This document shows, one piece after another, positions 12,149 through 56,109 of a stretch of 64,000 bases of DNA (the stretch's first letter is position 1; each line of letters starts with the position of its first letter). Below the pieces are notes generated by a model, which was not told where the DNA came from, ran no database searches, and worked only from the letters and a program-made list of their open reading frames with translations. Origin of the DNA: an uncultured Solibacteraceae bacterium (GTDB lineage: Bacteria > Acidobacteriota > Terriglobia > 20CM-2-55-15); assembly GCA_964584785.1 (NCBI GenBank), contig CAZPBY010000001.1, forward strand, positions 74,718 through 138,717, in the 5' to 3' direction. The position numbers were made by a program, and so were the translations under genes.

Positions 12149-12276
12149 CGTTTTCGCGTCATTGTCGCACACAGTTTCAACTGCTTCCCGTGGTATGTTC
12201 AGTCCATGAGCGGGTGGCGTCAAACACCATGCGCCTGTTGGCGCACGCGGCGACTGGACACGGAAAATGAGGAGAA

Positions 12277-12963
12277 ATGACGACCAACGAAGTAATCCAG
12301 AAACTGAAATCGATGGGGACTGAACAGACTCGCAAGACATACCGGCGGCATGGCGTTCAGGGTGAATTGTTTGGTGTGAGCTACGCCGGCTACTCTGCGT
12401 TAAAGAAGCAGATCAGAGTCGATGCGGACCTTGCGGGGCAATTGTGGAAATCCGGCAATCACGACGCGCGAATTCTAGCCACGATGATTGTGGACCCGGC
12501 CGAAGGCCTCCGGCTGCTCGACGATTGGGTGAAGGATCTGGATAGCTATCCAATCGTGGACGCGCTTGCAACGTTTGCAGCTCAAACGGCTGTCGATGCT
12601 AAAAAAGTCGAGAAGTGGATGAACAGCAAAGACGAGTGGACGGGCAGTTTTGGTTGGACGCTGTTCGCCAGGCTCGCGCGAGAGGATGCGCATTTTTCAG
12701 ACGCGTCGCTCGCGAGCTATCTCGACGTCATCGAACGCAACATCCATCGGGCAACGAACCGCGTGCGCCATTCCATGAACTCGGGCCTGATTTCAATCGG
12801 CGCTCGCAATAAGGACCTGCAAAAGAAGGCGCTCGCTGTTGCGGCCCGCATCGGCAAAGTTGAAGTCGATCATGGCGACACCGACTGCAAAACACCCGAC
12901 GCTGCGCAATACATCCTGAAGATCGCCGCTCGCAACGCCAGGTCCAGGAGCGCCAAAGCCTGA
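12277..12963 (+). CDS. DNA alkylation repair enzyme (AlkD/AlkC-like HEAT-repeat family)
   Basis: 228-aa ORF that resembles the PF08713-type DNA alkylation repair protein family in size and composition. It is divergent from the kinase gene. Confidence 0.65.
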   Translation: MTTNEVIQKLKSMGTEQTRKTYRRHGVQGELFGVSYAGYSALKKQIRVDADLAGQLWKSGNHDARILATMIVDPAEGLRLLDDWVKDLDSYPIVDALATFAAQTAVDAKKVEKWMNSKDEWTGSFGWTLFARLAREDAHFSDASLASYLDVIERNIHRATNRVRHSMNSGLISIGARNKDLQKKALAVAARIGKVEVDHGDTDCKTPDAAQYILKIAARNARSRSAKA

Positions 12964-12993: not shown

Positions 12994-13073
12994 CGAAAAA
13001 TCGAGGTCAGCCCGGTTGTTGTCTTTTTTCGGAACAATAAAAGGATCACAACCAGGCTGACCTCGATTTTTTC
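12994..13073. terminator. bidirectional intrinsic terminator between convergent genes
   Basis: CGAAAAATCGAGGTCAGCC ... GGCTGACCTCGATTTTTTC: a 19-nt inverted repeat with an A-run upstream and a T-run downstream. The ~42-nt centre can itself fold. GAAAAATCG and CGATTTTTTC are duplicated on either side. Confidence 0.45.
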
Positions 13074-17772: not shown

Positions 17773-20397
<2,625 letters not shown>

Positions 20398-20628: not shown

Positions 20629-23298
20629 TTATTTCTTCTGGGTAGCAGCGAGCCAGTTGACGACGACCGCGATGGGCGGAACGGCAGATGGTTCGGAGGC
20701 CGGCGGTTGCAGCACCAGGAATCTCTCACCATCCGGGGTGACATCATACTTGCCGTTGGTAAAATCCGAACCGGTGTTCCGCGTTTGAAACAGCGGCCTT
20801 GGAATGCCCGTTTCAATGGTGGTTCCGTTCGGCTTGACATCGACTGCCATCAACTTTCCATCTGGAGCGAGATAGAATATTTCCTTTCCATCCTTCCGCC
20901 AACGAGGTATTCCGCCTCCCGCATTTGATACCTGACGTCGGTCCGTCATGGACGGAAAGGCGGCGACCCATACTTGGGTCGAACCCGACTCATCGGAGTT
21001 GTAGGCTATCCAGCGGACGTCATACGACAGATTGAACTGCCTGCTTGTCGAAGGACCACCAACCAGCCGCACGGGTGTTGGATCACCGGTCAACGGGATA
21101 GCGGATACCGATTGATCTTCCGAACTTCGGTAAATGATGTAACGTCCATCCTTTGACCAGTCATCGATGGTTCCACTGTCCTTAAAGAGCGACGTCTCCT
21201 CACTTCCTCCTACATTCTTTCTATAAACGTGGTTGGAGCCTTTGCGGTTGGACGCGAATACAACTTCTTGTCCATTGGGTGACCAGACTGGATCAATGGA
21301 GCTGGAGGGTCCGAAGGTGAAGCGCGATAGGATGCCGGTCGATAGCTCTGCGAGCCAGAGCTCGTAACTGCCGATCCTCGGATCGAAACGGTCGAAAACC
21401 GCTCGCTTACCGTCGAGTGAAAGGTGGACATTATTGAAAAAATCGGGGTCGCCAATTGTTCCGAGCGGTCGCCCTGAGCGGTCGAACCAAGCCAATTGAG
21501 CGCCCCGAGCGTTTTCGGGGCCTCCATAAGCAAGAATGCCCGTACTCGACGTAGATACGCTGGCGAGCCAACCATTCTGGCCCACATCTTCTGCTACAAG
21601 AAACGCCTCTCCTCGAGTCTCCAGGTCGGCTAAGTCAAATGGCTGTGCCATCAAGGAATTTCCTCGCACCCACAGCAGATGACCGTCGCTATAGATTGTG
21701 CGAGTGTTCACATTCAGGACCCGCTTTCGGTCCCTCGAATCGAGAGAGCCAACGTAGATTCCACTTACTTCGGCCTCCGAGCTGACGACCCCATATAGAA
21801 AATGCCGGCCATCTGGTAGGAAAAAGGGGAATATGTGCCGAGCTTCATGTGAATTCAGCAATGTTACCGGTGCGCGATCTCCCCCTCTGGCGGAGAGGCT
21901 GTAGATACCCGTGTCCGAGCCGCCGCAGAGAAGGACGCCATCGCGATTCCACGTGCCGAACCCACACGGTGTGTTACTGACCAGTTCAGGAGGGCCGCCG
22001 CCAACCGCGATCTTCTTGAATTTTCCACCGGCGTTAAAACCAATAAACTTGCTGTCCGTCGACCAGGACGGCGCACCTCCGCCATCCGTGCCTTGCAAAA
22101 TTCGCGCGTCTAGTGAATCAATCCCACGAACCCATAGCTTCGATGTAGGTTCGTCTATTGCACTGAAAACAAGGTACCGGCCATCGGGAGACAGTGCAAA
22201 CTCCGGAACACCCGAACTCTGAAAGACCTTCTGAGGTGGTGGAGGAATCGTGAAACGAACAACGGTTGTGTTGCGAGTCGGCGGCGAACGCCAATACGCA
22301 ATCGCAACGCTGGCTGCGGCGACGACAAGCGCGATGCCAGCCACGAACCACGCCCAACGTTCACGAGTCTGTCGAGGCTGTTGGATAACACCCGCGGCAG
22401 CGTTCGACGCCTCTTCGATCTCGATTCGTGCGTCAGCAATGTCGTGAAGACGGCGGTTTGGATCCTTCTGAAGTGCGCGTCGCAGGAGCGTCCGAATCGA
22501 AAGTGGTGTTTCGGCGGGGAGCCTCGTCCAGTCAGGCTCTTCGGCGACGATCTGCGCAAGGACATCGGTTGTTGTCTCGCCGTCGAATGTGGGGCGTCCG
22601 CTTAACATCTCGTACAACACGCAGCCCCAGGCCCAGATGTCCGTGCGCTTATCGATGTCTTTGCCGCGCGCCTGCTCCGGCGACATGTAGCCTACGGTGC
22701 CGAGGATGAGGTTGTCTTCGGTCGAGACAACCGCCTTCGTCACCATGTCCGATGACGCAATCTTGGACTCGAAAATCTTTGCCAACCCGAAGTCGAGGAC
22801 CTTCACCGTGCCGTCTCGCGTGATCTTGATGTTGGCGGGTTTCAGATCGCGATGAACGACTCCCTTCGCGTGAGCCGCTTCCAGTGCCTCAGCTATCTGG
22901 CGAGCGATCGCCAACGCTTCTTCTACCGGCACACGGCCACGAGCAATACGCTCGGCGAGCGCGTCGCCATCGATGAACTCCAGGGCCAGACCACAGAGCC
23001 CATCGCTTTCTTCGAGACCGTAGATGGCTGCGATTCGCGGATGATTCAAGGAGGCAAGAAGCTGCGCTTCGCGATGAAATCGGGCGACCCGTTCGCGATC
23101 CTGAGCGAACGCTTCGGGCAGCACTTTGATCGCAACGTCACGATTCAGTTTCGAGTCGCGCGCCCGATAGACTTCAGCCATTCCACCGGCCCCGATGGAC
23201 GCGATGATTTCGTACGGTCCGAGCCGTGTTCCGGCAGCCAGCCGCCAGGACGACTGAATCCCACTGACCATTTGCTGCCGGTCTTCAGGCCGATCCAT
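20629..23298 (-). CDS. Ser/Thr protein kinase with TolB-like beta-propeller (paralogue 3)
   Basis: GAGGMAEVYRARD, HRDLKPANIKI, DFGLAK. A transmembrane segment. PD40 repeats. Alternative start at 23271. Confidence 0.85.
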   Translation of the reverse strand: MDRPEDRQQMVSGIQSSWRLAAGTRLGPYEIIASIGAGGMAEVYRARDSKLNRDVAIKVLPEAFAQDRERVARFHREAQLLASLNHPRIAAIYGLEESDGLCGLALEFIDGDALAERIARGRVPVEEALAIARQIAEALEAAHAKGVVHRDLKPANIKITRDGTVKVLDFGLAKIFESKIASSDMVTKAVVSTEDNLILGTVGYMSPEQARGKDIDKRTDIWAWGCVLYEMLSGRPTFDGETTTDVLAQIVAEEPDWTRLPAETPLSIRTLLRRALQKDPNRRLHDIADARIEIEEASNAAAGVIQQPRQTRERWAWFVAGIALVVAAASVAIAYWRSPPTRNTTVVRFTIPPPPQKVFQSSGVPEFALSPDGRYLVFSAIDEPTSKLWVRGIDSLDARILQGTDGGGAPSWSTDSKFIGFNAGGKFKKIAVGGGPPELVSNTPCGFGTWNRDGVLLCGGSDTGIYSLSARGGDRAPVTLLNSHEARHIFPFFLPDGRHFLYGVVSSEAEVSGIYVGSLDSRDRKRVLNVNTRTIYSDGHLLWVRGNSLMAQPFDLADLETRGEAFLVAEDVGQNGWLASVSTSSTGILAYGGPENARGAQLAWFDRSGRPLGTIGDPDFFNNVHLSLDGKRAVFDRFDPRIGSYELWLAELSTGILSRFTFGPSSSIDPVWSPNGQEVVFASNRKGSNHVYRKNVGGSEETSLFKDSGTIDDWSKDGRYIIYRSSEDQSVSAIPLTGDPTPVRLVGGPSTSRQFNLSYDVRWIAYNSDESGSTQVWVAAFPSMTDRRQVSNAGGGIPRWRKDGKEIFYLAPDGKLMAVDVKPNGTTIETGIPRPLFQTRNTGSDFTNGKYDVTPDGERFLVLQPPASEPSAVPPIAVVVNWLAATQKK

Positions 23299-40290: not shown

Positions 40291-40620
40291 ACCATCAGGA
40301 GGATATCCCGGCAAACGGGATGTAACAAACAAAACACTGGCGTCTGGAAATGGCCTTCAGTCTTCCCCGTCAATACGAACAGAAATGCAAAGCGACATCG
40401 GTTCAGAGCACCTGGCGGACAAAAGTGTCGCAGGCCGCCGGCACAGGTAGGGATAGTCGACAGATTTCGGGGCGCGCGGTAGAATTCGCCGTCCTGCATG
40501 TCCCGCGACGACAACGTGAGCGCCGGCTTCGATGCTGCTCATGATCTTCGGGCGAGCTTTAGAGGCGTCGCCGCGCGTTGCGGAACCGGCGCACCAACGG
40601 TTGGGAGGATTTGAGTTCCC

Positions 40621-40710
40621 GATGAGCGGAGCGAATGCAAGCCCGACAGGGCGCAGCTATTAAACGATGAGCGGAGCGAATGCAAGCCCGACAGGGCGCA
40701 GCTATTAAAT
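40621..40710 (+). repeat. two tandem copies of a 45-nt element carrying a 13-codon ORF ([13 protein letters not shown]), abutting the MFS start codon
   Basis: GATGAGCGGAGCGAATGCAAGCCCGACAGGGCGCAGCTATTAAAC, then the same ending ...AAAT. Each copy contains ATG...TAA. The second TAA is 3 nt before the MFS ATG (40712). A third copy lies at 50635. Confidence 0.7.
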
Positions 40711-40711
40711 A

Positions 40712-42154
40712 ATGTCACGGATTGCTGCAAGATTGGAGAGGCTGCCATTCTCGGTGTTTCATCGCCGCCTGCTGCTGATGGGCGGTCTTGGTTACTGCTT
40801 TGACGCCATGGACGCCGCGGTCATCGCCTTCGTGTTACCGGCGTTAATGACTCAGTGGTCGTTGACGAGCGTGCAAGCAGGCGTTCTCTCGAGCGCCACC
40901 TTCATCGGGTACTTCTTTGGGGCATTGGGGGCAGGCACGGCCGGCGATCTGATCGGCCGGCGCAGGATCATGATGTGGGCTCTGGTGATCTACTGCGTGG
41001 CCTCCTTCATCAGTGCCTTCGTTACATCGGCCACTCCGTTTTTCTGGCTGCGCGTCCTTGCGGGCGTCGGCACAGGCGCGGAAAGCGTCATCGTCGCTCC
41101 GTTTCTTTCGGAGTTCGTGCCGAAAACCTACCGCGGTCGATTCATTGGCGCCTTGGCGGGTTTCTTTTCATTCGGATTTTTCGGTGCCGCCGTCCTCGGC
41201 TACGCGCTGGTGCCGGCCACACTGTGGGGATGGCGGCTTGCGATCGTCATTACCGCACTCCCGATCCTGTTGCTCCTGTGGTGGCGAAGGGCGTTGCCGG
41301 AGTCGCCGCGCTGGCTCGAGAGCCGCGGCCGAATATCCGCGGCCGAAGCCGTTATGACGCGCATCGAAGAGGAAATTCTCCAGACACGCCGGCAACCGCT
41401 GACGCAGCCGGAACCCGTGCCGGCTTTCGATTTCAATCAGCAAGGCGGGTCGCAGGGCGGATCGGTCTGGACCAATATCGCAACCCTCGTTTCTCCTCCG
41501 CTGACGCGTATCGCCGTAATGACGTGGGCGCTGTGGCTGTCGATCACGTTTTCCTATTACAGCTTCTTTACCTGGATACCGACTCTGCTGGTTCAAAGCG
41601 GCATGACCATGACGCGCAGTTTCGCCTATTCGATCTCGATTTATGCCGCGATGATTCCCGGCTACTACTCTGCAGCTTTTTTCAACGACCGCATCGGCCG
41701 TCGGGCGATCATTGTGTCGTACCTGCTCCTGGGTGGTGTGGCGGCGATAGGGCTTGCCATGGCCCACTCCAACCCGCAGATTATTCTTGCCGGCGTGTGT
41801 TTATCTTTCTTTATGAACGGGGTCTACGCAGGCGTGTATGCCTACACTGCCGAGGTCTTTCCGACGCGGATCCGAACGACGGGAGTCGGTCTGGCGTCAG
41901 CGGTGGGCCGACTGGGCGCCATCAGTGCTCCGATTCTCGTCGGAGCGATCTTCCCCAGATTCGGTTTCGCAGGTGTGTTCGGTGTGACGACATTCGTTTT
42001 GATCGCCGGAGCGGTGGTGGTTTTTGTGTTCGGGATACGCACGGAGGGGCGTTCCCTGGAGGCCATTGCTGCCGGGGCACAACTGACACGGAAGAGGAAT
42101 TCGAAATTGAACGAGTCCTGCATCTCAAATCCGAAATCCGAAATTTCAAAATGA
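40712..42154 (+). CDS. MFS transporter (metabolite:H+ symporter type)
   Basis: 480 aa with 12 predicted TM segments. MFS motifs (GDLIGRRRIM, ...FNDRIGRR). Confidence 0.85.
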   Translation: MSRIAARLERLPFSVFHRRLLLMGGLGYCFDAMDAAVIAFVLPALMTQWSLTSVQAGVLSSATFIGYFFGALGAGTAGDLIGRRRIMMWALVIYCVASFISAFVTSATPFFWLRVLAGVGTGAESVIVAPFLSEFVPKTYRGRFIGALAGFFSFGFFGAAVLGYALVPATLWGWRLAIVITALPILLLLWWRRALPESPRWLESRGRISAAEAVMTRIEEEILQTRRQPLTQPEPVPAFDFNQQGGSQGGSVWTNIATLVSPPLTRIAVMTWALWLSITFSYYSFFTWIPTLLVQSGMTMTRSFAYSISIYAAMIPGYYSAAFFNDRIGRRAIIVSYLLLGGVAAIGLAMAHSNPQIILAGVCLSFFMNGVYAGVYAYTAEVFPTRIRTTGVGLASAVGRLGAISAPILVGAIFPRFGFAGVFGVTTFVLIAGAVVVFVFGIRTEGRSLEAIAAGAQLTRKRNSKLNESCISNPKSEISK

Positions 42155-42238
42155 ACCTCGACACCCCGCGTCCCGGCGTTCAATTTTGAGATTTCGGTTT
42201 TCGGATTTGAGATGCAGGACGGGTGCAATTTCAAAATT
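42097..42238. repeat. ~140-bp foldback (two ~60-bp imperfect inverted arms) spanning the MFS stop codon
   Basis: Left arm gaattcgaaattgaacgagtcctgcatctcaaatccgaaatccgaaatttcaaaatgaac. The reverse complement of the right arm matches it at ~88%. A ~21-nt spacer separates the arms. The MFS stop (42152..42154) and its last ~19 codons lie in the left arm. Confidence 0.5.
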
Positions 42239-42280: not shown

Positions 42281-43525
42281 ATGCAGCAGGAAAGCTACCT
42301 GTTTCGAAACCTGATGCTCCTCGACCCGCGCTTCGAGGAATCCCGCGGCGGGTACGAAGTGCTGGTCGAGGATGGTCATTTCAAGGAAGTCTCAGACCGG
42401 CCGGTTTCTTCGAAGACAGCGCGAGTCATCGATTGCGGCGGACGAACACTGATGCCGGGCCTCATCGACTGCCACGTGCATGTCTACTTGAGCGAGGTCA
42501 ATCTCTCGATGCTGGAGCACTTGTCGGTATCGCTGCTCGCGGCGCGTGCGGCACCGGTTTTGGCAGGGATGCTCAATCGGGGGTTTACAACGGTTCGCGA
42601 TACCGGCGGCGCCGATTGGGGAATCCGGGAAGCCGTCGAAAAAGGGTACTTCGCAGGGCCGCGAATGTTCATCTGCGGGCGCGCCATCGGTCCGACGGGC
42701 GGCCATTCCGACATGCGCCGACGAACCGACCAACGCCACGACGGCTGCCGGTGTTGCGATGGCCTGAAGTTTACGATGGCCACGGCCGACGGTGCGGATC
42801 AGGTGCGCGCGACAGTTCGCGAGGAACTGCGGCAGGGCGCGGATGCCATCAAGATCATGGTCTCCGGCGGTGTGGCCTCGCCTTACGATCCGCTCGATTC
42901 GCGTCAATTCTCACTGCCGGAAATTGCCGCGGCCGTCGAAGAGGCCACCGCATTCAAACGGTATGTTCTCGCGCACGCGTACACGGCGGAGGCCATCACC
43001 CGGGCCGTCAGTCAGGGCGTCCGAACGATCGAGCATGGCAACTTGATCGATGCGACCTCCGCTCAGTTGCTCGCCGAACGCAAGGGCTACATGGTCGCCA
43101 ACCTTGTGGCCTACGTCGTCATGAAGGAGCGCGCCGCACAGCTCGGCATGAGCGCTGAAAAGCTCGAAAAGAACGACCTGGTTATCAAAGGCGGATTCGA
43201 ATCTCTCGAGATCTGCAGGCGGGCAGGCGTGAAGGTGGCGTATGGCAGCGACCTGCTCGGGCAATTACAGGATGAGCAATCGCGCGAATTCGTGCTGCGC
43301 CGTGAGGTCGTGAGTCCCATCGAGATCATCCGCTCGGCGACATCGATCGGTGCCGAGGTGGTACGGATGCAGGGCAAGCTCGGCATCATCGACCCCGGTG
43401 CGATTGCGGATCTGCTCATCGTGGACGGCGATCCGCTGAAGAACTTGAGCCTGCTCCAGGACCAGGGCCAGCACCTCTCGCTCATCATGAAAGACGGGCG
43501 CCTTCATAAAAATCGGCTAACGTGA
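42281..43525 (+). CDS. metal-dependent amidohydrolase family protein
   Basis: LMPGLIDCHVHVY metal-binding HxH motif. Later metal ligands (H, H, D). 414 aa. Confidence 0.8.
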   Translation: MQQESYLFRNLMLLDPRFEESRGGYEVLVEDGHFKEVSDRPVSSKTARVIDCGGRTLMPGLIDCHVHVYLSEVNLSMLEHLSVSLLAARAAPVLAGMLNRGFTTVRDTGGADWGIREAVEKGYFAGPRMFICGRAIGPTGGHSDMRRRTDQRHDGCRCCDGLKFTMATADGADQVRATVREELRQGADAIKIMVSGGVASPYDPLDSRQFSLPEIAAAVEEATAFKRYVLAHAYTAEAITRAVSQGVRTIEHGNLIDATSAQLLAERKGYMVANLVAYVVMKERAAQLGMSAEKLEKNDLVIKGGFESLEICRRAGVKVAYGSDLLGQLQDEQSREFVLRREVVSPIEIIRSATSIGAEVVRMQGKLGIIDPGAIADLLIVDGDPLKNLSLLQDQGQHLSLIMKDGRLHKNRLT

Positions 43526-43562
43526 AGTTAGTTGATCGGATATTCCATGGTAAATTATAGCT

Positions 43563-43796
43563 ATGAAGACTATACAGATTACTGTGGACGAAGAGTTGTT
43601 GAAAAAGGTCGACGCACACGAAGAAACGCAGCGTGACGGAAGATCTGCGGTCTTTCGGCGTGCAGTCAGCGAATACCTTCGACAAAGCAAACGGGATGCG
43701 ATCGCCAGCAGTTATCGTAGAGGCTATTCGAGGAAAGCCGGCCTCGGTCCGGAATTCGAAAACTGGGAGAAGGAGAGTTCATGGCCGAACGATTGA
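43563..43796 (+). CDS. ribbon-helix-helix (CopG/MazE-like) antitoxin
   Basis: KTIQITVDEELLKKVD beta-strand plus helices. It overlaps the toxin gene by 16 nt. Confidence 0.65.
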   Translation: MKTIQITVDEELLKKVDAHEETQRDGRSAVFRRAVSEYLRQSKRDAIASSYRRGYSRKAGLGPEFENWEKESSWPND

Positions 43797-44110
43797 TGCG
43801 CGGCCAAATCTGGCAATACCAGTTTTCGCGTCCAGACAAAAGGCGGCCCGTTGTAATTCTGACCCGACCGGAGGTCATCGATCTGTTGCACACGGTTATG
43901 GTCGCGCCGGTCACTTCCACAATTCATGGCATCCCCAGCGAGGTGCTGGTTGGGGTCGACGAGGGTTTGAAAGCAGATTCCGCGATAAATCTGGACCACG
44001 TCCAGACTGTTGAGAAATCCAGGCTGCATCGCTTGATCGGCTCGGTCGCCCCCCAAAAGATGAAAGCGGTTTGCCGTGCGCTTGCCGTCGCGACCGGCTG
44101 TGGCGACTGA
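43781..44110 (+). CDS. mazF: MazF/PemK-family endoribonuclease toxin
   Basis: GQIWQYQFSRPDKRRPVVILTRPEV...VMVAPVTSTIHGIPSEVLV...DSAINLDHVQTVEKSRL is the characteristic PemK/MazF signature. Confidence 0.8.
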   Translation: MAERLMRGQIWQYQFSRPDKRRPVVILTRPEVIDLLHTVMVAPVTSTIHGIPSEVLVGVDEGLKADSAINLDHVQTVEKSRLHRLIGSVAPQKMKAVCRALAVATGCGD

Positions 44111-44237
44111 ACATTTCCCGCCTGGGCACTCGACGATTGTCGCGACGAGGTTCGGTCCGTGAAGTTGGGCGCCACGGGAAAAAGGGCGCCACCAGCCTCA
44201 ACGGTGGAATGACAAACCGCGATGTATACTTGGCGGC

Positions 44238-46733
44238 ATGTCTACATCCAGACGAACATTTCTGCGACTCTCGGCGTCCACGCTCGCTGCCACGACGCTC
44301 CGTCCGTATATGTCCGAAGGCGGTACAGCAGGTCAGCTGACGGCGGTAAGCGCCCTCGAACAGAACCTGCTCAAGGCGCATCCGGTCCCGCTATCGAAAG
44401 TCCGCGTGCTTGGCGGTCCGCTAAAACTTGCGCAGGATGCGGACGCGAAATATCTGCTCGAACTCGAACCCGACCGGATGATGGCCTTCTACCGCGTGCG
44501 CGCCGGACTTCCGCAAAAGGCGCAGGCTTACGGCGGTTGGGATGCCGGCGGCCGCAACCTGACAGGTCATATCGCAGGACATCACCTGTCGGCCGTAAGC
44601 CTGATGTATCTCGCCACAGGCGATGCGCGCTTCAAATCACGTGCCGATTATCTTGTCGCCGAACTCCAGGAAGTGCAGGACAAGAACGGCGATGGATATT
44701 TGAGCGCGCTCGAAGGCGGACGCGAAATGTGGGCCTCAGTATCGAAAGGTGAAATTCGCTCGAGCGGCTTTGACCTCAACGGTCTTTGGTCACCGTGGTA
44801 CACGCTGCACAAAACTTTTGCCGGACTCCGCGATGCTTACCGGCATGCCGGCAATCGCACGGCGCTTGATCTCGAAGTCAAATATGCAGACTGGGCTGCC
44901 GGCGTGCTTGCGCCGATGAGCGACGTTCAGATTCAACGCATGCTCAATACCGAGCACGGTGGGATGAACGAAGTGCTTGCCGATCTCTACGCCGACACCG
45001 GAAATCGGCGCTGGCTCGATCTTTCGTACAAGTTCGAACACCGCGCCTTCACCGATGCGCTGAAGCGCCATCAAGACAATCTCAACGGCAAGCATGGAAA
45101 TTGTCAGATCCCGAAACTCATCGGATCGGCCGTTCGTTACGGCTATACAGCCGACGCCGGCGATATCGAAGCCGCATCCTTCTTCTGGGATCGCGTCACG
45201 CAGCACCACACTTATGCCAGCGGTGGGCACGGCCTGGCGGAATACTTCGGACCGGCGGATCAACTCAGTCCGCGCGTCGATGGACGCACCTGCGAGACGT
45301 GCAACGTGTACAACATGCTCAAGCTCACGCGCCGGCTTTTTTCGATTCGACCGGACGCGTTTTACGCCGATTTTCACGAGCGGGCTCTCTTTAATCACAT
45401 TCTCGCGTCGCTCGATCCGCAGACCGGCCGGTCATCATATATGGTGCCCGTCGGACGCGGCGTCCAACAGGAATACCAGAACATGCTGCAGAGCTTTACG
45501 TGCTGCGTCGGAACCGGTATGGAGAGCCATGCGCTGCACGGCTACGGAATCTATTACGAGTCGGCCGACACAGCGAGTCCGATGCTCTGGGTAAATCTCT
45601 TCGTGCCATCGACAGCCGAGTTTGCGGCGGGTGTGAATCTCAGGATGGACACCGGTTTTCCCGATGAAGACAACGCGACGATCTCGCTGACGATGGCGGC
45701 GCCAAAGAAATTCACACTGGCGATCCGGCGGCCGAGTTGGGCCGGTGATGGATTCAGGGTGAAACTGAATGGCGCCGCGGTTGAGGTTCCGCCATTGGCG
45801 AGTCTGCGTGCAGGAAGCGCCGGCGGCCGCAACGTCGGTACGGATGAAAGGGTGCTGCAGCCGAGCTCGTACGTCGAGATCGATCGCACCTGGAACTCGG
45901 GCGATAAGATTGAGCTTCAACTGCCAAAGTCGCTGCGACTGGAAGCCACAGCCGACAATCGCCGCGTTGCCGCAGTCATGTGGGGCCCGCTGGTACTTGT
46001 GGGCGATTTGGGTCCGCGACGCGAGGGTCCCGGCACCGCTGCCGTAGCGCCGGTTCCGGTACTTGTTGCCGCCGAACGCCCGCCGGCCGAGTGGATCGTT
46101 CCTTCACAAGCGCGACCGGGTGACTTTCTCGCAAGCAACGTCGCGCGAGTTCCGGCTCAACCGGCTCCGCCCGGCGATGTGACGCTCACACCGTTCTATC
46201 GAACGCATGGCCGTACTTACAGCTTGTACTTCGATGTGATCTCGCCTGAGGAATTCGACGTCCGGGCCACTGAAGTCGTTGCGGAGCGCGAACGGCTCCG
46301 TCGCCTGGATGCTGCGACAATCGCCCTCGTGCAACTCGGCGACGCGCAGAGCGAACAACATTTCAACTATCAGAGCGATCCCGCAAATCGTCCCGCACCG
46401 CGTACCAACGGCCGCGCGAACCGCAGCGGCACGGGATGGTTTTCTTTGGACCTTCCGGTTGACGGCAACAAAGAGATGGCCGTCGTTGTGACCTATTTGA
46501 ATGAACTGGGACTCGAGCCCGCGGCCGGCAACTTCCAGATCCTGGTCGACGGCACAGAGATCGCACGGTTCCAATCCAATCCCATGTCGACCGGCTTCTA
46601 TGATGCACAGTACGCCATTCCTTCAAATCTGCTCAGCGGCAAAACTAAAGTGACGGTCCGCTTTCAAGCGCTGGCCAACGGCAGGATCGCTCCGGTGTTC
46701 GGAGTGCGCATGATCCGCGCGAAGGAGGCATGA
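44238..46733 (+). CDS. glycoside hydrolase family 127 (DUF1680; beta-L-arabinofuranosidase-like), Tat signal
   Basis: SRRTFLRLSASTLAATT twin-arginine signal. Conserved Cys-rich blocks CETCN and CCVGTG, typical of GH127. Confidence 0.8.
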   Translation: MSTSRRTFLRLSASTLAATTLRPYMSEGGTAGQLTAVSALEQNLLKAHPVPLSKVRVLGGPLKLAQDADAKYLLELEPDRMMAFYRVRAGLPQKAQAYGGWDAGGRNLTGHIAGHHLSAVSLMYLATGDARFKSRADYLVAELQEVQDKNGDGYLSALEGGREMWASVSKGEIRSSGFDLNGLWSPWYTLHKTFAGLRDAYRHAGNRTALDLEVKYADWAAGVLAPMSDVQIQRMLNTEHGGMNEVLADLYADTGNRRWLDLSYKFEHRAFTDALKRHQDNLNGKHGNCQIPKLIGSAVRYGYTADAGDIEAASFFWDRVTQHHTYASGGHGLAEYFGPADQLSPRVDGRTCETCNVYNMLKLTRRLFSIRPDAFYADFHERALFNHILASLDPQTGRSSYMVPVGRGVQQEYQNMLQSFTCCVGTGMESHALHGYGIYYESADTASPMLWVNLFVPSTAEFAAGVNLRMDTGFPDEDNATISLTMAAPKKFTLAIRRPSWAGDGFRVKLNGAAVEVPPLASLRAGSAGGRNVGTDERVLQPSSYVEIDRTWNSGDKIELQLPKSLRLEATADNRRVAAVMWGPLVLVGDLGPRREGPGTAAVAPVPVLVAAERPPAEWIVPSQARPGDFLASNVARVPAQPAPPGDVTLTPFYRTHGRTYSLYFDVISPEEFDVRATEVVAERERLRRLDAATIALVQLGDAQSEQHFNYQSDPANRPAPRTNGRANRSGTGWFSLDLPVDGNKEMAVVVTYLNELGLEPAAGNFQILVDGTEIARFQSNPMSTGFYDAQYAIPSNLLSGKTKVTVRFQALANGRIAPVFGVRMIRAKEA

Positions 46734-46737
46734 AACG

Positions 46738-49455
46738 ATGAATTCAGCCGGCGCCAGGAAGAGCGTGCCTGCTCTCCTCCTTGTCCTCGGATTGCTTACA
46801 CTGTCGGTCGCGGCTGCGCAAGCTCTAGACACGCTGACTTTGGATACTCCCGATTTCACGCTGAAGCTTCTGGCATCGTCTCAAACCATGGCCTCGCTTC
46901 AACCTAAAGGGGCAGGTAGTTTTGATTTCGCTCCGGCGGATCGACTCGAGAGCCGTGCCGGCGACGGATTCAACGCAATTGGTGACATAACCCTGCGCAT
47001 ACGCAAAGGCACATCTGGATCCTGGGAAAACTATTCAACGAGCGCAGCGCGGCATCCGGTTCGTGCAATGAGTGGGCCCGGTTTCCTTGCCGTCGCTGAT
47101 CTTTCGCCGACTCTGGCGCCGGACTGTCCAATCCAGGTCACGCGACGCTGGTTGCTGGACGATGGCCGCCTTGTCCTCCGTTTCGAATTGAAGAACACGT
47201 CTTCAGACACCGTGCAAGTCGGCGCCCTCGGTCTGCCGATGGTCTTCAACAATATGCTGAAGGGCCGTCCGCTGACGGAAATGGTTGAGGTCAATTCCTT
47301 CTCGGACCCTGCGATCAATCAGGATGGCGGTTATCTTCAGGTCACGCGGCTGAACGGTCATGGTCCGGCGCTTGTTGTCGTACCGGCCGACGGCAAGACA
47401 CCCTTCGAAGCATGGCGATTACTTAATGAACCTAACGGGCCAAACAACCTCTTCAGCCGGGGCAATCCATACGAAGGCGCGTTCGAGTGGATGGTTCACT
47501 CCGCGGCTTATGCGGAAAACGAGTGGAAGGGCAAAGAGCAGTGGAGTCCACCGACGATGGCTTCACTGGAGCCGGGCCAAAGCCGAAGTTACAGTGTGAA
47601 GTTCCTCGTCTCACCCGACATCCGCAACATTGAAAAAACGCTGATCGCCAACAAACGGCCTGTGGCCGTCGGAATCCCGGGCTATATCCTCCCGATGGAT
47701 TTGAACGCGAAGTTGTTTTTGAACTATCCATCCAGAGTCACCTCCATCAAAAGTGAACCAGCCGGTGCGATTGTTGTTCAGGAGAACAAACCCACACAAG
47801 GTGGCTGGAAAGATTACACGCTGCAAGGCAAAACCTGGGGACGTGTGCGCCTCTCCATAAGCTATGCGGACCGCACGACTCAGGCCTTGAGTTATTACGT
47901 CATCAAGCCCGCGTCCCAACCGGTGGCCGACCTGGGAAACTTCCTGTTCACAAAACAGTGGTACGTCAATCCTGACGATCCTTTCCATCGCAGTCCGTCC
48001 GTGATGACATACGATCGTGCCAACAACCGCCTCGTCCTGCAGGACGCGCGCGCCTGGATTGCCGGCCTCGGCGATGAAGGAGGCGCCGGTTCATGGCTGG
48101 CCGCGGCGATGAAGGAATTTGGCCAGCCGCGCAAAGACGAGATTGCGAAGTTCGAACAGTTCGTGGATGGAGTTCTGTGGGGACAACTGCAGTACAGCGA
48201 AGGTCCGCGCCAATACGGCGTGAAAAAGAGTTTGTTCTATTACGATCCCGCCGCGCTTCCCTCCTTTCCTTATGAAGAACGGTTCAATTGGACGACATGG
48301 ACCAGCTGGAACAAACCCGCCGCAGAGTCCGTGAATCGCGCTTATGACTATCCACACGTTGTAGCGGCGTATTGGGCCATGTACCGGATTGCGCGAAACT
48401 ACGACGGTCTGGTGACGCACCATGCATGGGATTGGTATCTGAATCAGGCCTTCCAGACCGCCAACTATCTCGGCACTCATGCCAACATCGGCAACAGTCG
48501 CGACGGTCTCATGGACGGCACTATTTTTCTGATGTTGCTGGATGATCTGAAACGCGAGGGCTGGAAGAGTCAGTCCGAGACGCTCGAGGGCCAACTGAAA
48601 ACGCGCGCCGAAGACTGGAACAAGCGTGCTTTACCATACGGCAGCGAAATGGCGTGGGATTCCACAGGTCAGGAGCAGATTTACGGAATCACCAAATACT
48701 TCGGCAATGACGAAAAGGCGCGAATCACTCTGGACTCCGTGTTGGGTTACATGCCGTCCATTCCGCATTGGGGCTACAACGGCAGCGCCCGCCGTTTTTG
48801 GGACTTCTTTTACGGCGCGGCGCCAGGAGGTACCGCCGAACGGCAGTTGCATCATTACGGCTCCGGACTCAACGCGATTCCGGTGCTTTCCGCATTCCGC
48901 GGCGATCCCGATGATTTCCACCTGCTGCGCACCGGCTACGCCGGCGCTATGGGCGGATTAAGCAACATCGATCAGGAAGGCTTCGCCGGCACTGCGTTTC
49001 ACTCCTTTCCGCAGAACATGCGGTGGGATACCTACTCCGGCGATTATGGTCCGAACTTTTTCGGCGTTGCCGTGAATGCGGGAACTTACATTATCAATCA
49101 TCCGGAATTCGGCTGGCAGGCCTTTGGCGGGAACACGAAGACCGATAGCGACTGGATTCGAGTTCAACCGCTCGATGCGTTTCGGCAACGCGTTTATGTC
49201 GGACCGCTGGGATTGTGGCTCACCCTCGATTCCGGGACGTTCGACAACATCGAAATCAACAGCAGGACGCACGCCGTGCGCGCCGGTCTTGCCGCCGCTA
49301 CACCATCCACGAAGTCCGCGCGGCTGCGCATTGAACAGCCCGCGAAAATTCCAGGAGTCGGCGTTTACCATCCCAAAGGAAACTTCGAGAAGGAACGGGA
49401 CGCATTTACGATCGCGCTTCAGAACGGAATTTCATGGATCGAGTTGGTTCCGTGA
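46738..49455 (+). CDS. large secreted protein of unknown function (possible glycoside-hydrolase accessory/enzyme)
   Basis: Signal peptide, 905 aa. GGAGG SD. It starts 4 nt after the GH127 stop. No recognisable catalytic motif. Confidence 0.55.
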   Translation: MNSAGARKSVPALLLVLGLLTLSVAAAQALDTLTLDTPDFTLKLLASSQTMASLQPKGAGSFDFAPADRLESRAGDGFNAIGDITLRIRKGTSGSWENYSTSAARHPVRAMSGPGFLAVADLSPTLAPDCPIQVTRRWLLDDGRLVLRFELKNTSSDTVQVGALGLPMVFNNMLKGRPLTEMVEVNSFSDPAINQDGGYLQVTRLNGHGPALVVVPADGKTPFEAWRLLNEPNGPNNLFSRGNPYEGAFEWMVHSAAYAENEWKGKEQWSPPTMASLEPGQSRSYSVKFLVSPDIRNIEKTLIANKRPVAVGIPGYILPMDLNAKLFLNYPSRVTSIKSEPAGAIVVQENKPTQGGWKDYTLQGKTWGRVRLSISYADRTTQALSYYVIKPASQPVADLGNFLFTKQWYVNPDDPFHRSPSVMTYDRANNRLVLQDARAWIAGLGDEGGAGSWLAAAMKEFGQPRKDEIAKFEQFVDGVLWGQLQYSEGPRQYGVKKSLFYYDPAALPSFPYEERFNWTTWTSWNKPAAESVNRAYDYPHVVAAYWAMYRIARNYDGLVTHHAWDWYLNQAFQTANYLGTHANIGNSRDGLMDGTIFLMLLDDLKREGWKSQSETLEGQLKTRAEDWNKRALPYGSEMAWDSTGQEQIYGITKYFGNDEKARITLDSVLGYMPSIPHWGYNGSARRFWDFFYGAAPGGTAERQLHHYGSGLNAIPVLSAFRGDPDDFHLLRTGYAGAMGGLSNIDQEGFAGTAFHSFPQNMRWDTYSGDYGPNFFGVAVNAGTYIINHPEFGWQAFGGNTKTDSDWIRVQPLDAFRQRVYVGPLGLWLTLDSGTFDNIEINSRTHAVRAGLAAATPSTKSARLRIEQPAKIPGVGVYHPKGNFEKERDAFTIALQNGISWIELVP

Positions 49456-49475
49456 GGATGTCACGATCGAGCTGT

Positions 49476-49570
49476 GTTTCGTCACGAAGCCCGTCGCTGC
49501 GCTCCGGGTTCTGCACAATGTGCCAAACCTGACAGAACCCGGAGCGCAGCGACGGGCTTCGTGACGAAAC
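49476..49570. repeat. perfect 38-bp inverted repeat (95-bp hairpin element) between the secreted-protein gene and galT
   Basis: GTTTCGTCACGAAGCCCGTCGCTGCGCTCCGGGTTCTG, a 19-nt loop, then the exact reverse complement. There is no U-tract after it. Confidence 0.8.
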
Positions 49571-49598
49571 GCAAAGTCCGCTCCCGTGGATAACGCGA

Positions 49599-50675
49599 AT
49601 GAATGATCCAAACAAGTGGGAAGAACGATGGCATCCGCTGCGGGAGGAATGGGTCATCATCGCGGCGCACCGTCAGGACAGGCCGTGGCATGGCGAAACG
49701 AAAGGTGCGACGTCCGCTAATGCCTCTACGCCGGAGTACCACGAGCGATGCTATTTCTGTCCCGGTAACCGGCGAGTCGGCGGCGCCCGTAACGAAAACT
49801 ACAGCGGCATATTTGTTTTCGATAACGATCATCCCTGCGTTGGACCAAACGCGCCAGATGTGCTTGATCCTGCGACCGGCATCTACCGCAATCGGCCGGC
49901 ACAAGGCCTGGCCCGCGTCATCTGCTACAGCCCGAAACATAACCTCACGCTCGCCGAGATGGAGATTCCTGAAATCGAAAACCTTATGAAAGCCTGGCGA
50001 GATCAGTACGTCGAACTAGGCGACAGGCCGCAAGTCCGCCACGTTTTGGTGTTCGAGAATAAGGGCGAGGTCGTCGGCGTTTCGAACCCGCATCCACACT
50101 GTCAGATCTACGCGACCAATTTTGTGTTCAAGTTCATCGAGACCGAGGCGGAGGTTTCACGCAAGTATTACGAAGACAAAGGCCGGAGCCTGTTCGAAGA
50201 CATCATCAAAACCGAACGTGACGATGGACGCCGCGTCATTTATGAAAACTCTTCGGCGATCGCATTCATGCCGTACTTCGCGAGGTACGCTTACGAATCC
50301 TATGTTGCGCCCCGGGCGATGCATCCGGATCTGGCGAGTCTCAACAAAGACGAAATAAAGGACCTCGCCGAGGCTTTGAAAATCATGCTGGTGCGTTATG
50401 ACAACTTATGGCGGATGCCGTTTCCGTACGTGATGACGCTGCACCACGCTCCGCTGGATGGCGCGAATCACGACGGCTTTCATTTCCACATCGAGTTCCA
50501 TCCTCCACTGCGCAAACCGAATCTGCTGAAATATCTCGCCGGCCCGGAGATCGGCGGCGGTAACTTTCTCAGTGACACATTGCCGGAAGAAAAGGCGCAA
50601 GAGCTGAGGAACTTACCTGACGTTCACTACAAACATGAGCGGAGCGAATGCAAGCCCGATAGGGCGCAGCCTTAA
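49599..50675 (+). CDS. galT: galactose-1-phosphate uridylyltransferase (HIT superfamily)
   Basis: Zn site CYFCPGN. Active-site HPHCQ. Overall GalT colinearity. The C-terminal 13 residues and the stop come from the 45-nt repeat copy. Confidence 0.85.
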
Positions 50676-50679
50676 GTAA
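50635..50679 (+). repeat. third copy of the 45-nt element/13-14-codon ORF ([14 protein letters not shown]) at the galT/IMPase junction
   Basis: ATGAGCGGAGCGAATGCAAGCCCGATAGGGCGCAGC is near-identical to 40621..40710. It overlaps the galT 3' end in another frame. Its TAA (50677..50679) is 1 nt before the downstream ATG at 50681. Confidence 0.6.
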
Positions 50680-53104: not shown

Positions 53105-55846
53105 CTAGTGGAGAAGCGCCGGCCAGTTCACGATCACGTTTAACTGAGGGGAATCCTGGAGAGTCGCGCTTACTAAAAAGGGGCGGCGGGCATCGGCCGT
53201 TACCTCATAAAAGTTACTGCCGCTGGGCAGCAAAAACAACTCGTGAGGGGACGAAGTCGTGATGGAGCGACCTTCCAGCTTGATGTCGACGCTCTGCAAC
53301 TTTTTTTCGGGTGAGATGTAAAACAACTTGTGCCCGTCGGCGCTCCAGGCTGGGACGGTTCCTCCGCGTGCGGAAATCTGGAACTTCCGCTCCGCATCCG
53401 GAAAAGAACGAACATAGATTTCATACCGCCCCGATTCGTCGGACTCATATGCAACCCAGCGGGGACTCGGCTCCGGGGAGAATCGCGCGTTGAGTTCATT
53501 AAACCGCGTGCGGAGGTACGGTCTGGGTTGCGCGTCCTCGGGTGAACTTCCCGTGGACGCCACGGGCAGGATCCAAAGATCGCGATTGGTTTGCGTATCG
53601 CTGCTGAAGTAGATGATTTGACGGCCGTCGCCCGACCAGTCCGTCGCATGAGCAAATTGGTGGGTCATCTGACGTTCGCTGCCGTTTCCTGTTACGTCTT
53701 TGAGGAACAGGTAAGGGGGCCGTGTGAACACCATCTGCCGGCCATCGGGCGACCACAACGGATCAAAATTAATGCCCGGGCCGAATGTAAATCTCGTCGA
53801 TACATCCCGATCGATATCGACGATCCACAAATCGTAGTCCGGACCGCTCGTGTTGCGCGCTAAAACAATACGGCGGCCATCGGGCGACAAAGCGAAGTTC
53901 CTGACCAATCCCGGTTCTCCGACTGTGCCAATGGGCCTGCCCGATGAATCCACCCATGTCAACTGGCGATGATTGCCGGAAGAGCGATAAAGAAGAACGC
54001 CACTGCCCGACGCGTCCGCCTCTATTCGATATGAGTATCCGCTGTCAACCGGATCTGCGATGGCCGTAAGTTCGCCCGTCAGTTTGAGGGAGGTTGCATC
54101 AAACTCCTGTGCCACAAGGGTCCCATTGCGCCGCCATAGAAGGTACGTATTCCCACGCACTCCTTTCGCAAAAACTGCATTCGAATCCGTAATCAAAATC
54201 CGAATGGCCTCGTCGGGTTTTGTCAACGATGCAACGTATATGCCCGTGTCGCTGGAATTCTCGCTGACGCTGAAATACAAGAAGTGACCACCGGACAAGA
54301 ACTGCGGCCACATATGAAATCTTTCGCGACGTGCGGCGTTGAGCGCCGTGAACTGCACCGGTTCGCCGCCCGACGCAGGCACTCGGAACAACGTTTGTGC
54401 GGCGACCGAAAAAATAATTTGTCCGTCCTCACTCCAGGCGCCGCCTCGTGTTCCGAGCGCCATTTTGCAGATTATGGCCGGTGCCCCACCTGCAAGATCG
54501 ATGCGTTGCAGCTTTCCTGCGGCAAAGAATGCAAGAGACTTGCTGTCGGGAGACCCCAAAGGTTGCTGTGCTCCTTCCGTATCAGGAATCAATCTGGCCT
54601 CGGCGGCATCCAGAGGCCGGATCCACAGTCCCGTCTTCTCCTTCACCGTGGCAACAAACGCGATGGTTGTTCCGTCTGGCGATACGGCAAAACTAGCCTG
54701 AAAAAACTGGCCCCCCTCGGGGGGCACAATCTGCAAACGGAATGCGCGTTGTCCATTCGAGGTGTTGCCGCGGAAGCGAAACATCGACCAGCCGACAGCT
54801 ACAACGCCGAGCAACAACGCCACAGCGATTATCCATCGCCACGCGGAACGCGAAGTTGTGGCCAGCTGCTTTGGCGTTTGCGCCGCCCATTCCAATTCCG
54901 CCTTAACATCCGCCGCGTTCTGCCAGCGATCGTCCGGTTCAAGAGCCAAACATCTTTCCATGATGTGAGCGCACTTCTCATCAAACACGCGGATGGTGCT
55001 TTGACCTTGTACATAGAAATGTCCGGCCGCCATCTCGAACAGGATGAGGCCCAACGCGAAGATGTCGGTCCGCGCATCCGTCTCGCGGCCGGCGGTCTGC
55101 TCGGGCGCCATGTATTGCGGCGTCCCCATCACGGCTCCACGCTGCGTTATTGTCGCGTCGCCTTTGAATTTTGCCAAACCGAAGTCCAGAACTTTCACTC
55201 CGGATTTCGTGACCATGATGTTGCCGGGTTTCAGGTCGCGATGAGTAATCCCGCGACTGTGTGCGACGGCGAGAGCGTCCGCAATCTGTGCCCCATATCG
55301 CAGTACTTGCGGTATTGCGAGAGCGCCACTCTTCAGCCGGACCGACAACGATTCTCCTTCGACGAGTTCCATCACCAGATAATCCAGGCCGTCAATCTGC
55401 AGCACGTCGTGGAGAACGCAGATGTGTGGGTGATTCAACGCCGCGAGAGCCTGAGCTTCGCGCTCGAAGCGCTGCTTCATTGCGACATCGGTGGAGAATT
55501 GCGGCGGTAGTGCTTTGATGGCAACGGTACGGCCCAGCCGGGAGTCGCGGGCGCGAAAGACCTGGCCCATGCCGCCCTGGCCCAACAGTTGTTCGATGAC
55601 ATAAGGTCCGATGCGAGCACCGATCGTGAGCAGGCTTTTCGTTTCATTCACTTCATTGTTCATAGCACCAACGGCCCGAATGAAGTCGCCGGTTTTGTTG
55701 TCCTGCTCGAGCAACCCTTCCACTTCGCGCCGCAGCTCGGTATCCGTACCGCACTGTTCATTGAGGAATTGCCGACGCGCCTCCGGTCCGAGTTCGTTTG
55801 CAGCGTGATACAACGACTCCACTTTTTTCGACGATTCACGTTTCAT
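53105..55846 (-). CDS. Ser/Thr protein kinase with TolB-like beta-propeller (paralogue 4)
   Basis: GQGGMGQVFRARD, HRDLKPGNIMV, DFGLAK. A transmembrane segment. PD40 repeats. ATG at 55846. Confidence 0.85.
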   Translation of the reverse strand: MKRESSKKVESLYHAANELGPEARRQFLNEQCGTDTELRREVEGLLEQDNKTGDFIRAVGAMNNEVNETKSLLTIGARIGPYVIEQLLGQGGMGQVFRARDSRLGRTVAIKALPPQFSTDVAMKQRFEREAQALAALNHPHICVLHDVLQIDGLDYLVMELVEGESLSVRLKSGALAIPQVLRYGAQIADALAVAHSRGITHRDLKPGNIMVTKSGVKVLDFGLAKFKGDATITQRGAVMGTPQYMAPEQTAGRETDARTDIFALGLILFEMAAGHFYVQGQSTIRVFDEKCAHIMERCLALEPDDRWQNAADVKAELEWAAQTPKQLATTSRSAWRWIIAVALLLGVVAVGWSMFRFRGNTSNGQRAFRLQIVPPEGGQFFQASFAVSPDGTTIAFVATVKEKTGLWIRPLDAAEARLIPDTEGAQQPLGSPDSKSLAFFAAGKLQRIDLAGGAPAIICKMALGTRGGAWSEDGQIIFSVAAQTLFRVPASGGEPVQFTALNAARRERFHMWPQFLSGGHFLYFSVSENSSDTGIYVASLTKPDEAIRILITDSNAVFAKGVRGNTYLLWRRNGTLVAQEFDATSLKLTGELTAIADPVDSGYSYRIEADASGSGVLLYRSSGNHRQLTWVDSSGRPIGTVGEPGLVRNFALSPDGRRIVLARNTSGPDYDLWIVDIDRDVSTRFTFGPGINFDPLWSPDGRQMVFTRPPYLFLKDVTGNGSERQMTHQFAHATDWSGDGRQIIYFSSDTQTNRDLWILPVASTGSSPEDAQPRPYLRTRFNELNARFSPEPSPRWVAYESDESGRYEIYVRSFPDAERKFQISARGGTVPAWSADGHKLFYISPEKKLQSVDIKLEGRSITTSSPHELFLLPSGSNFYEVTADARRPFLVSATLQDSPQLNVIVNWPALLH

Positions 55847-56109
55847 AGGGCAGCGCGGCAAAGTTCACTGACGGCCAGATGGCGCTAAAAATATTGCCTC
55901 GCGACCCAATGTGCAACCTGATTTGGTCTGGTCCGCCTGACGAATCGATTCACAGCGCTTGGCTATGCGCCGGTATCTGAAGGCGGTGAGGCGTGAACGT
56001 CGCGTGTGGCAGCGACCTGCAAGGGCAAACAGTCGAAAATTGACGAGGTGTATTGGCCGCGCTATGCTCACGCGCCATCAACCAGCACGACAACCCGAGG
56101 GGACGTTCA

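Follow-up and report, generated by a model that had tools for sequence, protein, structure and literature searches.

A perfect inverted repeat before galT is probably a young copy of a dispersed palindromic repeat family in an uncultured member of the Acidobacteriota

Introduction

Between a DUF5695 gene and galT, a compact sugar-utilization operon of an uncultured acidobacterium carries a hairpin that is paired without a mismatch over 38 bp. Where such a palindrome comes from, and whether it serves the galactose genes beside it, is the question raised by this locus. The first-pass annotation of the window (the whole 64-kb stretch of DNA that was analyzed) had considered a recent foldback, a MITE-like insertion and a strongly selected RNA structure. 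With a probability of about 0.82, we read the hairpin as a young, undecayed copy of a dispersed, non-autonomous palindromic family of the foldback REPIN/MITE type, residing in an uncultured member of the Acidobacteriota.

Results

A long hairpin in a compact operon

The two arms of the hairpin (49476–49513 and 49533–49570, + strand) are exact reverse complements of 38 nt, and the hairpin measures 95 bp in all. The left arm, GTTTCGTCACGAAGCCCGTCGCTGCGCTCCGGGTTCTG, equals the family consensus described below at core positions 5–38, and its outer 4 nt (GTTT) belong to the variable part of the family arm. A CGTC tag, read from the sequence, forms the outer end of the conserved arm core (49480–49483, + strand) and is mirrored by GACG at 49563–49566. 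The 19-nt loop or spacer between the arms, CACAATGTGCCAAACCTGA (49514–49532, + strand), resembles the short-loop class of the family, with an orientation that was weakly called (alignment score of 6 vs 3). The whole paired stem extends over 49473–49573 on the + strand and has 41-nt arms with a single T:G, which would be a G.U pair in the + strand RNA. The perfect 38-bp inverted repeat, its 19-nt loop and its position in a 143-bp gap before galT, all described in the first-pass annotation, were borne out by the sequence, and a second assembly agrees.

The 143-nt gap (49456–49598) runs from the stop of the DUF5695 gene (905 aa, 46738–49455, + strand), whose stop codon lies 20 nt 5′ of the hairpin, to the start of galT (galactose-1-phosphate uridylyltransferase, 49599–50675, + strand), 28 nt 3′ of it. 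The hairpin had been placed at the boundary between the GH127 genes and the galT-kinase genes. This is correct on the galT side; on the upstream side the adjoining gene is DUF5695, and the GH127 gene (44238–46733, + strand) is one gene further away. The same-strand block comprises five genes, all on the + strand: GH127, DUF5695, galT, an inositol-phosphatase-like gene and a GHMP kinase gene. GH127 and DUF5695 are separated by 4 nt, the phosphatase-like gene and the kinase gene overlap by 4 nt, and among the junctions read only the two holding repeats (143 nt and 5 nt) are not tight. Considering these five + strand genes with tight junctions except at the repeats, the operon mRNA probably includes the hairpin. 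Folded as RNA, the gap reached −99.3 kcal/mol vs −48.0 ± 3.8 kcal/mol for shuffled sequences (z = −13.5), and none of the 200 shuffles was as stable.

No terminator-like site was called in 49000–50000, and no T-tract follows the stem, the 3′ flank being GCAAAGTCC, so that the lack of a U-tract reported earlier was confirmed. A promoter-like site was not called in the gap either. At the gathering threshold, Rfam gave no match in the window; its E-value-mode matches to the gap were sub-threshold animal and plant miRNA precursor models, which fit any long hairpin, and were rejected. An attC site was dropped because the termini are GTTTC...GAAAC and do not follow the attC inverse-core/core order, and a CRISPR repeat was dropped because two inverted units around a single 19-nt spacer do not make an array. 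Elsewhere in the 64-kb window, the arm sequence was not found even when 3 mismatches were allowed, and shuffles of the window yielded no match to the arm.

A dispersed family of hairpin doublets

Public metagenome contigs were searched with the 22-mer CGTCACGAAGCCCGTCGCTGCG, which covers basal and apical parts of the arm. It matched 56 contigs, 55 of which come from the metagenome assembly JACXTT01 (GCA_016853205.1). The sole match outside JACXTT01 (L058) is without a second arm, looks like a chance match and was set aside. Two of the 56 contigs represent the window locus itself (L054 and L001/L083), and the other 53 are non-redundant, with a GC content of 57.8% vs 57.4% in the window. An ungapped scan yielded 57 distinct doublets, the window copy included, and an arm-profile search found 135 arm matches in 377 kb, which resolved into 62 doublets and 11 orphan arms. 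Because the orphans are contig-end truncations, arms with a decayed or internally deleted partner, or chance matches, the hairpin doublet, and not the single arm, is the unit that was copied. That the copies share one genome rests on their GC content, their non-redundancy and the one contig in common with the window, in metagenome contigs and not in a closed genome.

With the arm profile, neither the rest of the 64-kb window nor the 21-kb locus of a relative with 76% identity gave a further copy, and the viral contigs searched contained no match. An origin of the roughly 60 copies by segmental duplication of larger blocks is contradicted by their unrelated flanks. The search beyond the window proposed in the first-pass annotation has thus returned about 60 doublets instead of a single genomic copy.

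The consensus arm is GTGACGTCACGAAGCCCGTCGCTGCGCTCCGGGTTCTG. Its positions 8–38 are conserved at 82–100% and positions 1–4 are variable; the conserved 34-nt core begins with CGTC (arm positions 5–8), which is 77–96% conserved in both arms of 56 copies. A weak palindromic consensus, aaTGAAAc ... gTTTCAtt, extends about 7 nt beyond the arms, and past this point the flanks are unrelated between sites. The elements, with 38-bp TIRs and spacers of 18–38 nt (most commonly 19–20, 28 or 37 nt), are 94–114 bp long, have a start-to-start arm spacing of 56–76 bp and lack coding capacity. The short spacer is conserved and was found in two reverse-complement forms; the element thus has a polarity and has been inserted in both directions. 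For a single arm, the folding energy is −4.9 to −5.2 kcal/mol (z about 0.2 vs shuffles); its predicted structure is an interrupted stem of 4 + 3 bp with an 11-nt loop, and the arm tail is TG.

Four copies (L044:2705, L055:7152, L056:5830 and L078:7884) have an extended right flank in common (GAGAC TTTTCATTCAAAGAGCGTT...). Those in L055 and L078 also have a common left flank, in contigs that are otherwise dissimilar. These four copies may therefore be part of a larger composite repeat unit or form a subfamily.

A probable insertion at a junction that is tight in relatives

The closest GalT homologues are metagenomic and 80–82% identical, and more distant ones are labelled Acidobacteria or Terriglobia. 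Two of the closest keep the same gene order (contigs P0003 and P0002). According to the gene coordinates, 25 nt separate the end of the DUF5695 gene of P0003 (3572) from the start of its galT (3598), and the two genes of P0002 overlap by 4 nt; in both contigs, the end of galT meets or overlaps the start of the next gene. In the window, 95–101 nt of the 143-nt gap are taken up by the hairpin. Since the closest syntenic relatives have 25 nt or a 4-nt overlap where the window has 143 nt, the hairpin is, to judge from the relatives' gene coordinates, an insertion at the DUF5695–galT junction. It would lie upstream of an intact start, as the GalT N-terminus of the window aligns cleanly with the homologues. 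The contig L028 was considered as an empty site and rejected; its upstream gene looks like another glycosidase, which we take, by eye from the translation, to be a putative arabinofuranosidase, and not like DUF5695. The MITE-like insertion named in the first-pass annotation gains support here, with an arm that recurs at about 60 unrelated sites and closest syntenic relatives without the 143-nt gap.

Arm-to-arm mismatches average 5.1 per 38 nt in the family, whose copies degenerate through point mutations and small deletions that are not compensated. The two arms match the consensus throughout the 34-nt core in 3 of 57 copies (the window, L060 and L045), the outer 4 nt are fully paired in 7 of 57, and both features occur together only in the window copy. 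The best reading of these comparisons is that the window copy represents the intact end of a decay series, as would be expected of a recent copy of a master sequence. A recent local foldback is not required to explain the hairpin, because both arms already equal the family consensus, as they do over the 34-nt core in the two other copies.

In the relative with 76% identity, a large serine recombinase gene (L026:12982–14739; Resolvase, Recombinase, Zn_ribbon_recom) lies between the inositol-phosphatase-like and GHMP kinase genes, a further sign that the gene boundaries of this operon accept mobile DNA.

Mobility and a candidate enzyme

Target-site duplications were sought as had been proposed, and no direct repeat of 2–9 bp was enriched at any of the boundary offsets tested, from −12 to +10. 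Arm pairs bracketing an IS-sized segment were absent from the 377 kb of element-bearing contigs and from the window, and no transposase recurred among the 327 ORFs of these contigs. These results weigh against the reading of the family as classical MITEs, that is, internally deleted derivatives of an IS that were moved via their TIRs by the DDE transposase of that IS. Such an origin would fit the size of about 95–115 bp, the long TIRs and the non-coding, intergenic character of the elements, and the single arm, which does not fold by itself as a REP palindrome would, is more like a TIR than a REP unit. However, the best case for a duplication was a 2-bp repeat in 8/56 copies vs 2.3 expected, reached after hundreds of offset combinations, neither an IS-sized segment nor a recurring transposase was found, and little of the element is left outside the arms, an uncommon makeup for an IS derivative. 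We therefore regard the classical MITE as quite unlikely.

The lack of a target-site duplication would favor a single-strand HUH/Y1 mechanism of the RAYT/TIRYT-like kind over a DDE transposase, since a hairpin unit without duplication agrees with the HUH/Y1 single-strand transposition suggested for REPINs and RAYTs (PMC3116915). Among the Y1 transposases, those encoded by Acidobacteria and termed TIRYT form a group of their own and are flanked by long TIRs (Di Nocera et al. 2013, PMC3733652), and the TIRYT-flanking TIRs of Koribacter versatilis form a repeat family (PMC3733652). The CGTC-tagged repeats were without a known transposase as of that report (PMC3733652).

Y1 genes were searched by a motif scan with RAYT signatures and then checked by Pfam and NCBIfam. 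One Y1 transposase gene (IS200/RAYT-like, 188 aa) was found on an element-bearing contig (L072:3350–3916). It scored 41.8 bits with Pfam Y1_Tnp (cut-off of 23), 51 bits with NCBIfam REP_Tyr_transpos ("REP-associated tyrosine transposase"), which is below the 80-bit cut-off, and 18 bits with IS200. No hairpin arms flank this gene, the nearest element being 2 kb off, and no second copy of its type was present in the 377 kb of contigs or in the window. It is no more than a candidate for the mobilizing enzyme, since one Y1 gene among about 330 ORFs could be a chance occurrence. A 41-nt tandem repeat of 6 copies (L072:2597–2848) lies about 500 nt upstream of it.

Genomic placement of the copies

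According to crude ORF calls, the copies occupy short gaps of about 100–250 nt, which they nearly fill, often 1–30 nt after a stop codon, and they lie between convergent genes in 15 cases, tandem genes in 25 and divergent genes in 7. A similar genomic distribution has been described for REPs and MITEs (PMC3733652). The neighboring genes have nothing to do with galactose metabolism. The protein clusters found on more than one contig consist of large proteins, possibly ordinary paralogues, and one cluster includes the Ser/Thr kinase genes of the window. Within the window, four paralogous large minus-strand ORFs (9302–12340, 17773–20397, 20629–23298 and 53105–55861) account for the direct-repeat families D1–D3; the ORF at 53105–55861 matches a Ser/Thr kinase domain and PD40 (WD40-like) repeats.

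This placement can also be read as co-option of the whole family by the host, as a U-tract-independent terminator, an mRNA-stabilizing 3′ hairpin or an insulator. Copies mostly follow stop codons within 1–30 nt and many exactly fill convergent gaps of about 100 nt, the divergent promoter regions are least used (7/47), the flank consensus prolongs the palindrome, and REPs and MITEs have been reported to affect mRNA stability (PMC3733652). However, the arms decay without compensation and deletion derivatives persist. The arrangement bias is weak and comes from crude ORF calls, and the same pattern would be expected if insertions were best tolerated at 3′ ends. Co-option of the family is thus rather improbable.

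Pairing within and between elements

An RNA structure selected at this locus, such as an attenuator, RNase III site or terminator tuning galT against the upstream glycosidase genes, would account for an extremely stable stem in a co-directional operon gap and for the fact that the sole non-Watson-Crick position of the 41-nt stem is a G.U on the sense strand. However, the pairing per stem position within elements was about the same as that obtained when left arms were matched with right arms from different elements; the values for the two most variable stem positions were 0.29 and 0.32 within vs 0.31 and 0.32 between elements. A covariation pair-count test on 28 aligned short-loop copies gave 91.3% paired vs 90.2 ± 0.4% in 500 shuffles, 7 of which reached the observed value. 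The covariation score of 0.082 vs 0.068 in shuffles was reached by 14 of the 500 and is marginal, a range that unconstrained related sequences often reach in the calibration of this tool. The signal came from the outer pairs 3, 4 and 7, where the GGCACG/CGTGCC subfamily represents one shared double change. Outer-stem covariation that had been seen by eye (GTGAC/GTCAC, GTGGC/GCCAC and similar) was gone under the between-element control. In 15 elements between closely flanking co-directional genes, the sense-strand mismatches were 26 G.U vs 21 A.C (p = 0.56).

With pairing within elements equal to that between them, marginal covariation and no G.U bias, the pairing is explained, as far as these alignments indicate, by both arms copying one consensus and not by upkeep of an RNA helix. 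In addition, the same sequence adjoins unrelated genes, whatever their arrangement, at about 60 sites, the junction of the relatives is 25 nt or overlapping, and neither an Rfam family nor a U-tract goes with the stem. The strongly selected RNA structure (RNase III site or attenuator) once suggested for this boundary therefore found no backing from the relatives' junction, where it is absent, from the distribution of the family or from the pairing data. As an origin of the hairpin it is largely refuted, and we consider it very improbable.

If co-transcribed in the operon mRNA, the element would fold into a duplex of about 41 bp, which would abolish the stop-start translational coupling seen in relatives. 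The duplex could also halt 3′ exonucleases or be cleaved by a double-strand-specific RNase. Any such RNA effect would be a by-product of the insertion and not its cause, and the family-wide pairing data gave no sign of selection for it.

An independent assembly of the locus

The assembly JACXTT01 contains this exact locus at 99.94% identity. Its contig L054 corresponds to window 43203–49544, has the same left arm and loop, and stops within the right arm, and its contig L001/L083 runs from the DUF5695 stop through galT, with a right arm identical to that of the window. The assembly breaks at the hairpin (window 49455–49544), leaving two overlapping contig ends; inverted repeats fragment short-read metagenome assemblies, and this break, exactly at the hairpin, is a practical example. 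L001 shows 8 differences, all within its first 65 or so bases. Some lie outside the arm (in the spacer and loop) and some at family-invariant positions, and the differences are therefore best taken as probable contig-end errors. Since L054 and L001 together give both arms and the loop, the palindrome is independently confirmed. A local accident, either a template-switch foldback that made a quasi-palindrome perfect or an artefact of assembly, would agree with the perfect 38-nt complementarity and with an assembly that breaks at the hairpin and has one deviant contig end, but it is scarcely credible and is refuted as the sole cause by the family: both arms are identical to the consensus of 57 copies, so that no local correction is needed, a separate assembly reproduces the arms and loop, and the position of the L001 differences fits contig-end error.

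Other repeats and related modules

The motif GAGCGNAGCGA occurs 5 times in the window vs 0.49 expected, twice in the hairpin arms and three times in copies of a 45-nt repeat, and the hairpin family and the 45-nt family have a GAGCG[C/G]AGCGA box in common. The motif link between the arms and the 45-nt repeat that was noticed earlier holds as a shared enrichment; it does not extend to membership of one family, for these are two separate dispersed families. The 45-nt repeat, with the consensus ATGAGCGGAGCGAATGCAAGCCCGAYAGGGCGCAGCCATAAAT, forms a perfect tandem pair at 40620–40709 and has one copy at 50633–50677 that overlaps the galT 3′ end, and 8 further distinct copies, some of them tandem (L079), are present in JACXTT01 contigs. 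The copy at galT encodes a 13-aa tail after the conserved ...HYK, together with the stop codon; homologues have 4–6 variable residues there.

Two further hairpins were observed in the window. The one at 42100–42235 has 53-nt arms of 89% complementarity and a 30-nt spacer, and is A/T-rich with GAAATCCGAAAT motifs; partial matches in L034, L047, L057 and L059 indicate that it probably belongs to a third repeat family of the same organism. The other, at 12996–13071, has 33-nt arms of 88% complementarity and is flanked by AAAAA and, at its opposite end, by TTTTT. It lies between minus- and plus-strand genes (crude ORF calls) and looks like a bidirectional terminator, and no relatives of it were found in the element-bearing contigs searched.

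A collection of genomes was scanned with a 20-mer from the GC-rich arm core, giving at least 24 loci. Among the matches listed, most were single-strand and chance- or coding-like in GC-rich genomes, and L013, L007 and possibly L018 were informative. The apical 26-nt arm module CAGAACCCGGAGCGCAGCGACGGGCT recurs as inverted repeats in a Blastocatellia MAG (JADIYM010000003.1, L013). There, a non-coding repeat cluster (L013:1317–1673) contains one 36-nt inverted pair, 92% complementary around a 77-nt spacer, and additional copies; these repeats are without the CGTC-bearing basal part, and their spacers are longer than in the hairpin family. In a Paludibaculum MAG (L007:2976–3152), two direct copies of a 27-nt unit with the 21-nt arm core lie 150 nt apart. 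Modules that appear related by sequence are thus present in other acidobacterial classes. Literature searches for the motif strings and the JACXTT accession returned nothing relevant.

Discussion

On this reading, the hairpin before galT belongs to a common type of selfish DNA and is no dedicated regulator of the galactose genes. Its insertion into a formerly tight GH127–DUF5695–galT–kinase operon would have relied on an enzyme provided in trans. Explaining a perfect palindrome as ordinary genome biology guards against annotating a riboswitch, attenuator or terminator in a galactose operon. Two repeat families were inserted at gene boundaries of one compact sugar-utilization operon: the hairpin parted genes that overlap or nearly abut in relatives, and the 45-nt unit gave GalT a different C-terminal tail. 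This poorly studied, uncultured acidobacterial lineage contains at least three small repeat families (the hairpin, the 45-nt unit and the second hairpin type).

A broader and speculative reading, which we consider unlikely, is that the family belongs to a CGTC-tagged, REPIN-like replicator lineage native to the Acidobacteriota. The Blastocatellia copies of the apical module and the box in common with the 45-nt family would then imply long vertical persistence and a dedicated mobilizing or binding protein. If this were true, the transposase of CGTC repeats could come to light in a genome that has an active-looking family and, in an operon disrupted recently, a copy identical to the consensus. 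Such an enzyme, if found, would bear on how CGTC-tagged repeats spread.

Among known systems, intrinsic (Rho-independent) terminators have a short G+C-rich stem and a U-tract, whereas no U-tract is present here. A conserved cis-regulatory RNA is not matched either, as the structure is absent at the junction of the relatives, pairs without excess and has no Rfam match. Bacterial MITEs are closer: their size range of 70–300 bp, terminal inverted repeats and absence of coding capacity all apply to the family, but it shows no enriched target-site duplication, and no parent IS was found in the 377 kb of contigs and the window. Correia/NEMIS, ERIC and RUP elements are likewise small, non-coding inverted-repeat elements beside or between genes, which are co-transcribed and form long RNA hairpins; unlike the family here, they have identifiable target-site duplications or a parent IS. 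All three are named by Di Nocera et al. (PMC3733652).

REPINs (Bertels & Rainey 2011, PMC3116915) also consist of two highly conserved inverted units and a less conserved spacer, with one long predicted hairpin. Their replicating unit is the doublet and singlets are remnants (PMC3116915), to which the 62 doublets vs 11 orphan arms correspond, and their copies are dispersed and extragenic, as they are here in 53 other non-redundant contigs of one metagenome, which is not a closed genome. The start-to-start spacing is 71–110 bp in Pseudomonas vs 56–76 bp here (PMC3116915), and the absence of a target-site duplication is a further likeness. However, the arms here are not self-folding REP palindromes (z about 0.2), the tag is CGTC and not GTAG, no arm-flanked RAYT gene was found in the 377 kb of element-bearing contigs and the window, and the host is an acidobacterium and not a gamma-proteobacterium. 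Compensatory stem changes, reported to be common in REPINs (PMC3116915), were not seen here.

The CGTC-tagged repeats (PMC3733652) carry CGTC at the outer end of each unit, as the arms do, occur mainly as inverted dimers with conserved spacers (roughly 20–100 bp there vs 18–38 nt here) and have units downstream of coding regions. In those families, the unit has a stem of 8–9 bp, a loop of 4–5 nt and a CCA tail (PMC3733652), whereas the arm here has a weak 4 + 3 bp stem, an 11-nt loop and TG. The TIR/TIRYT family of Koribacter versatilis (PMC3733652) is likened to the family by description and not by TIR sequence. Strict membership of the REPINs, the CGTC families and the MITEs fails in each case, and we file the family as a small, non-autonomous palindromic repeat that appears closest to REPINs and TIR repeats.
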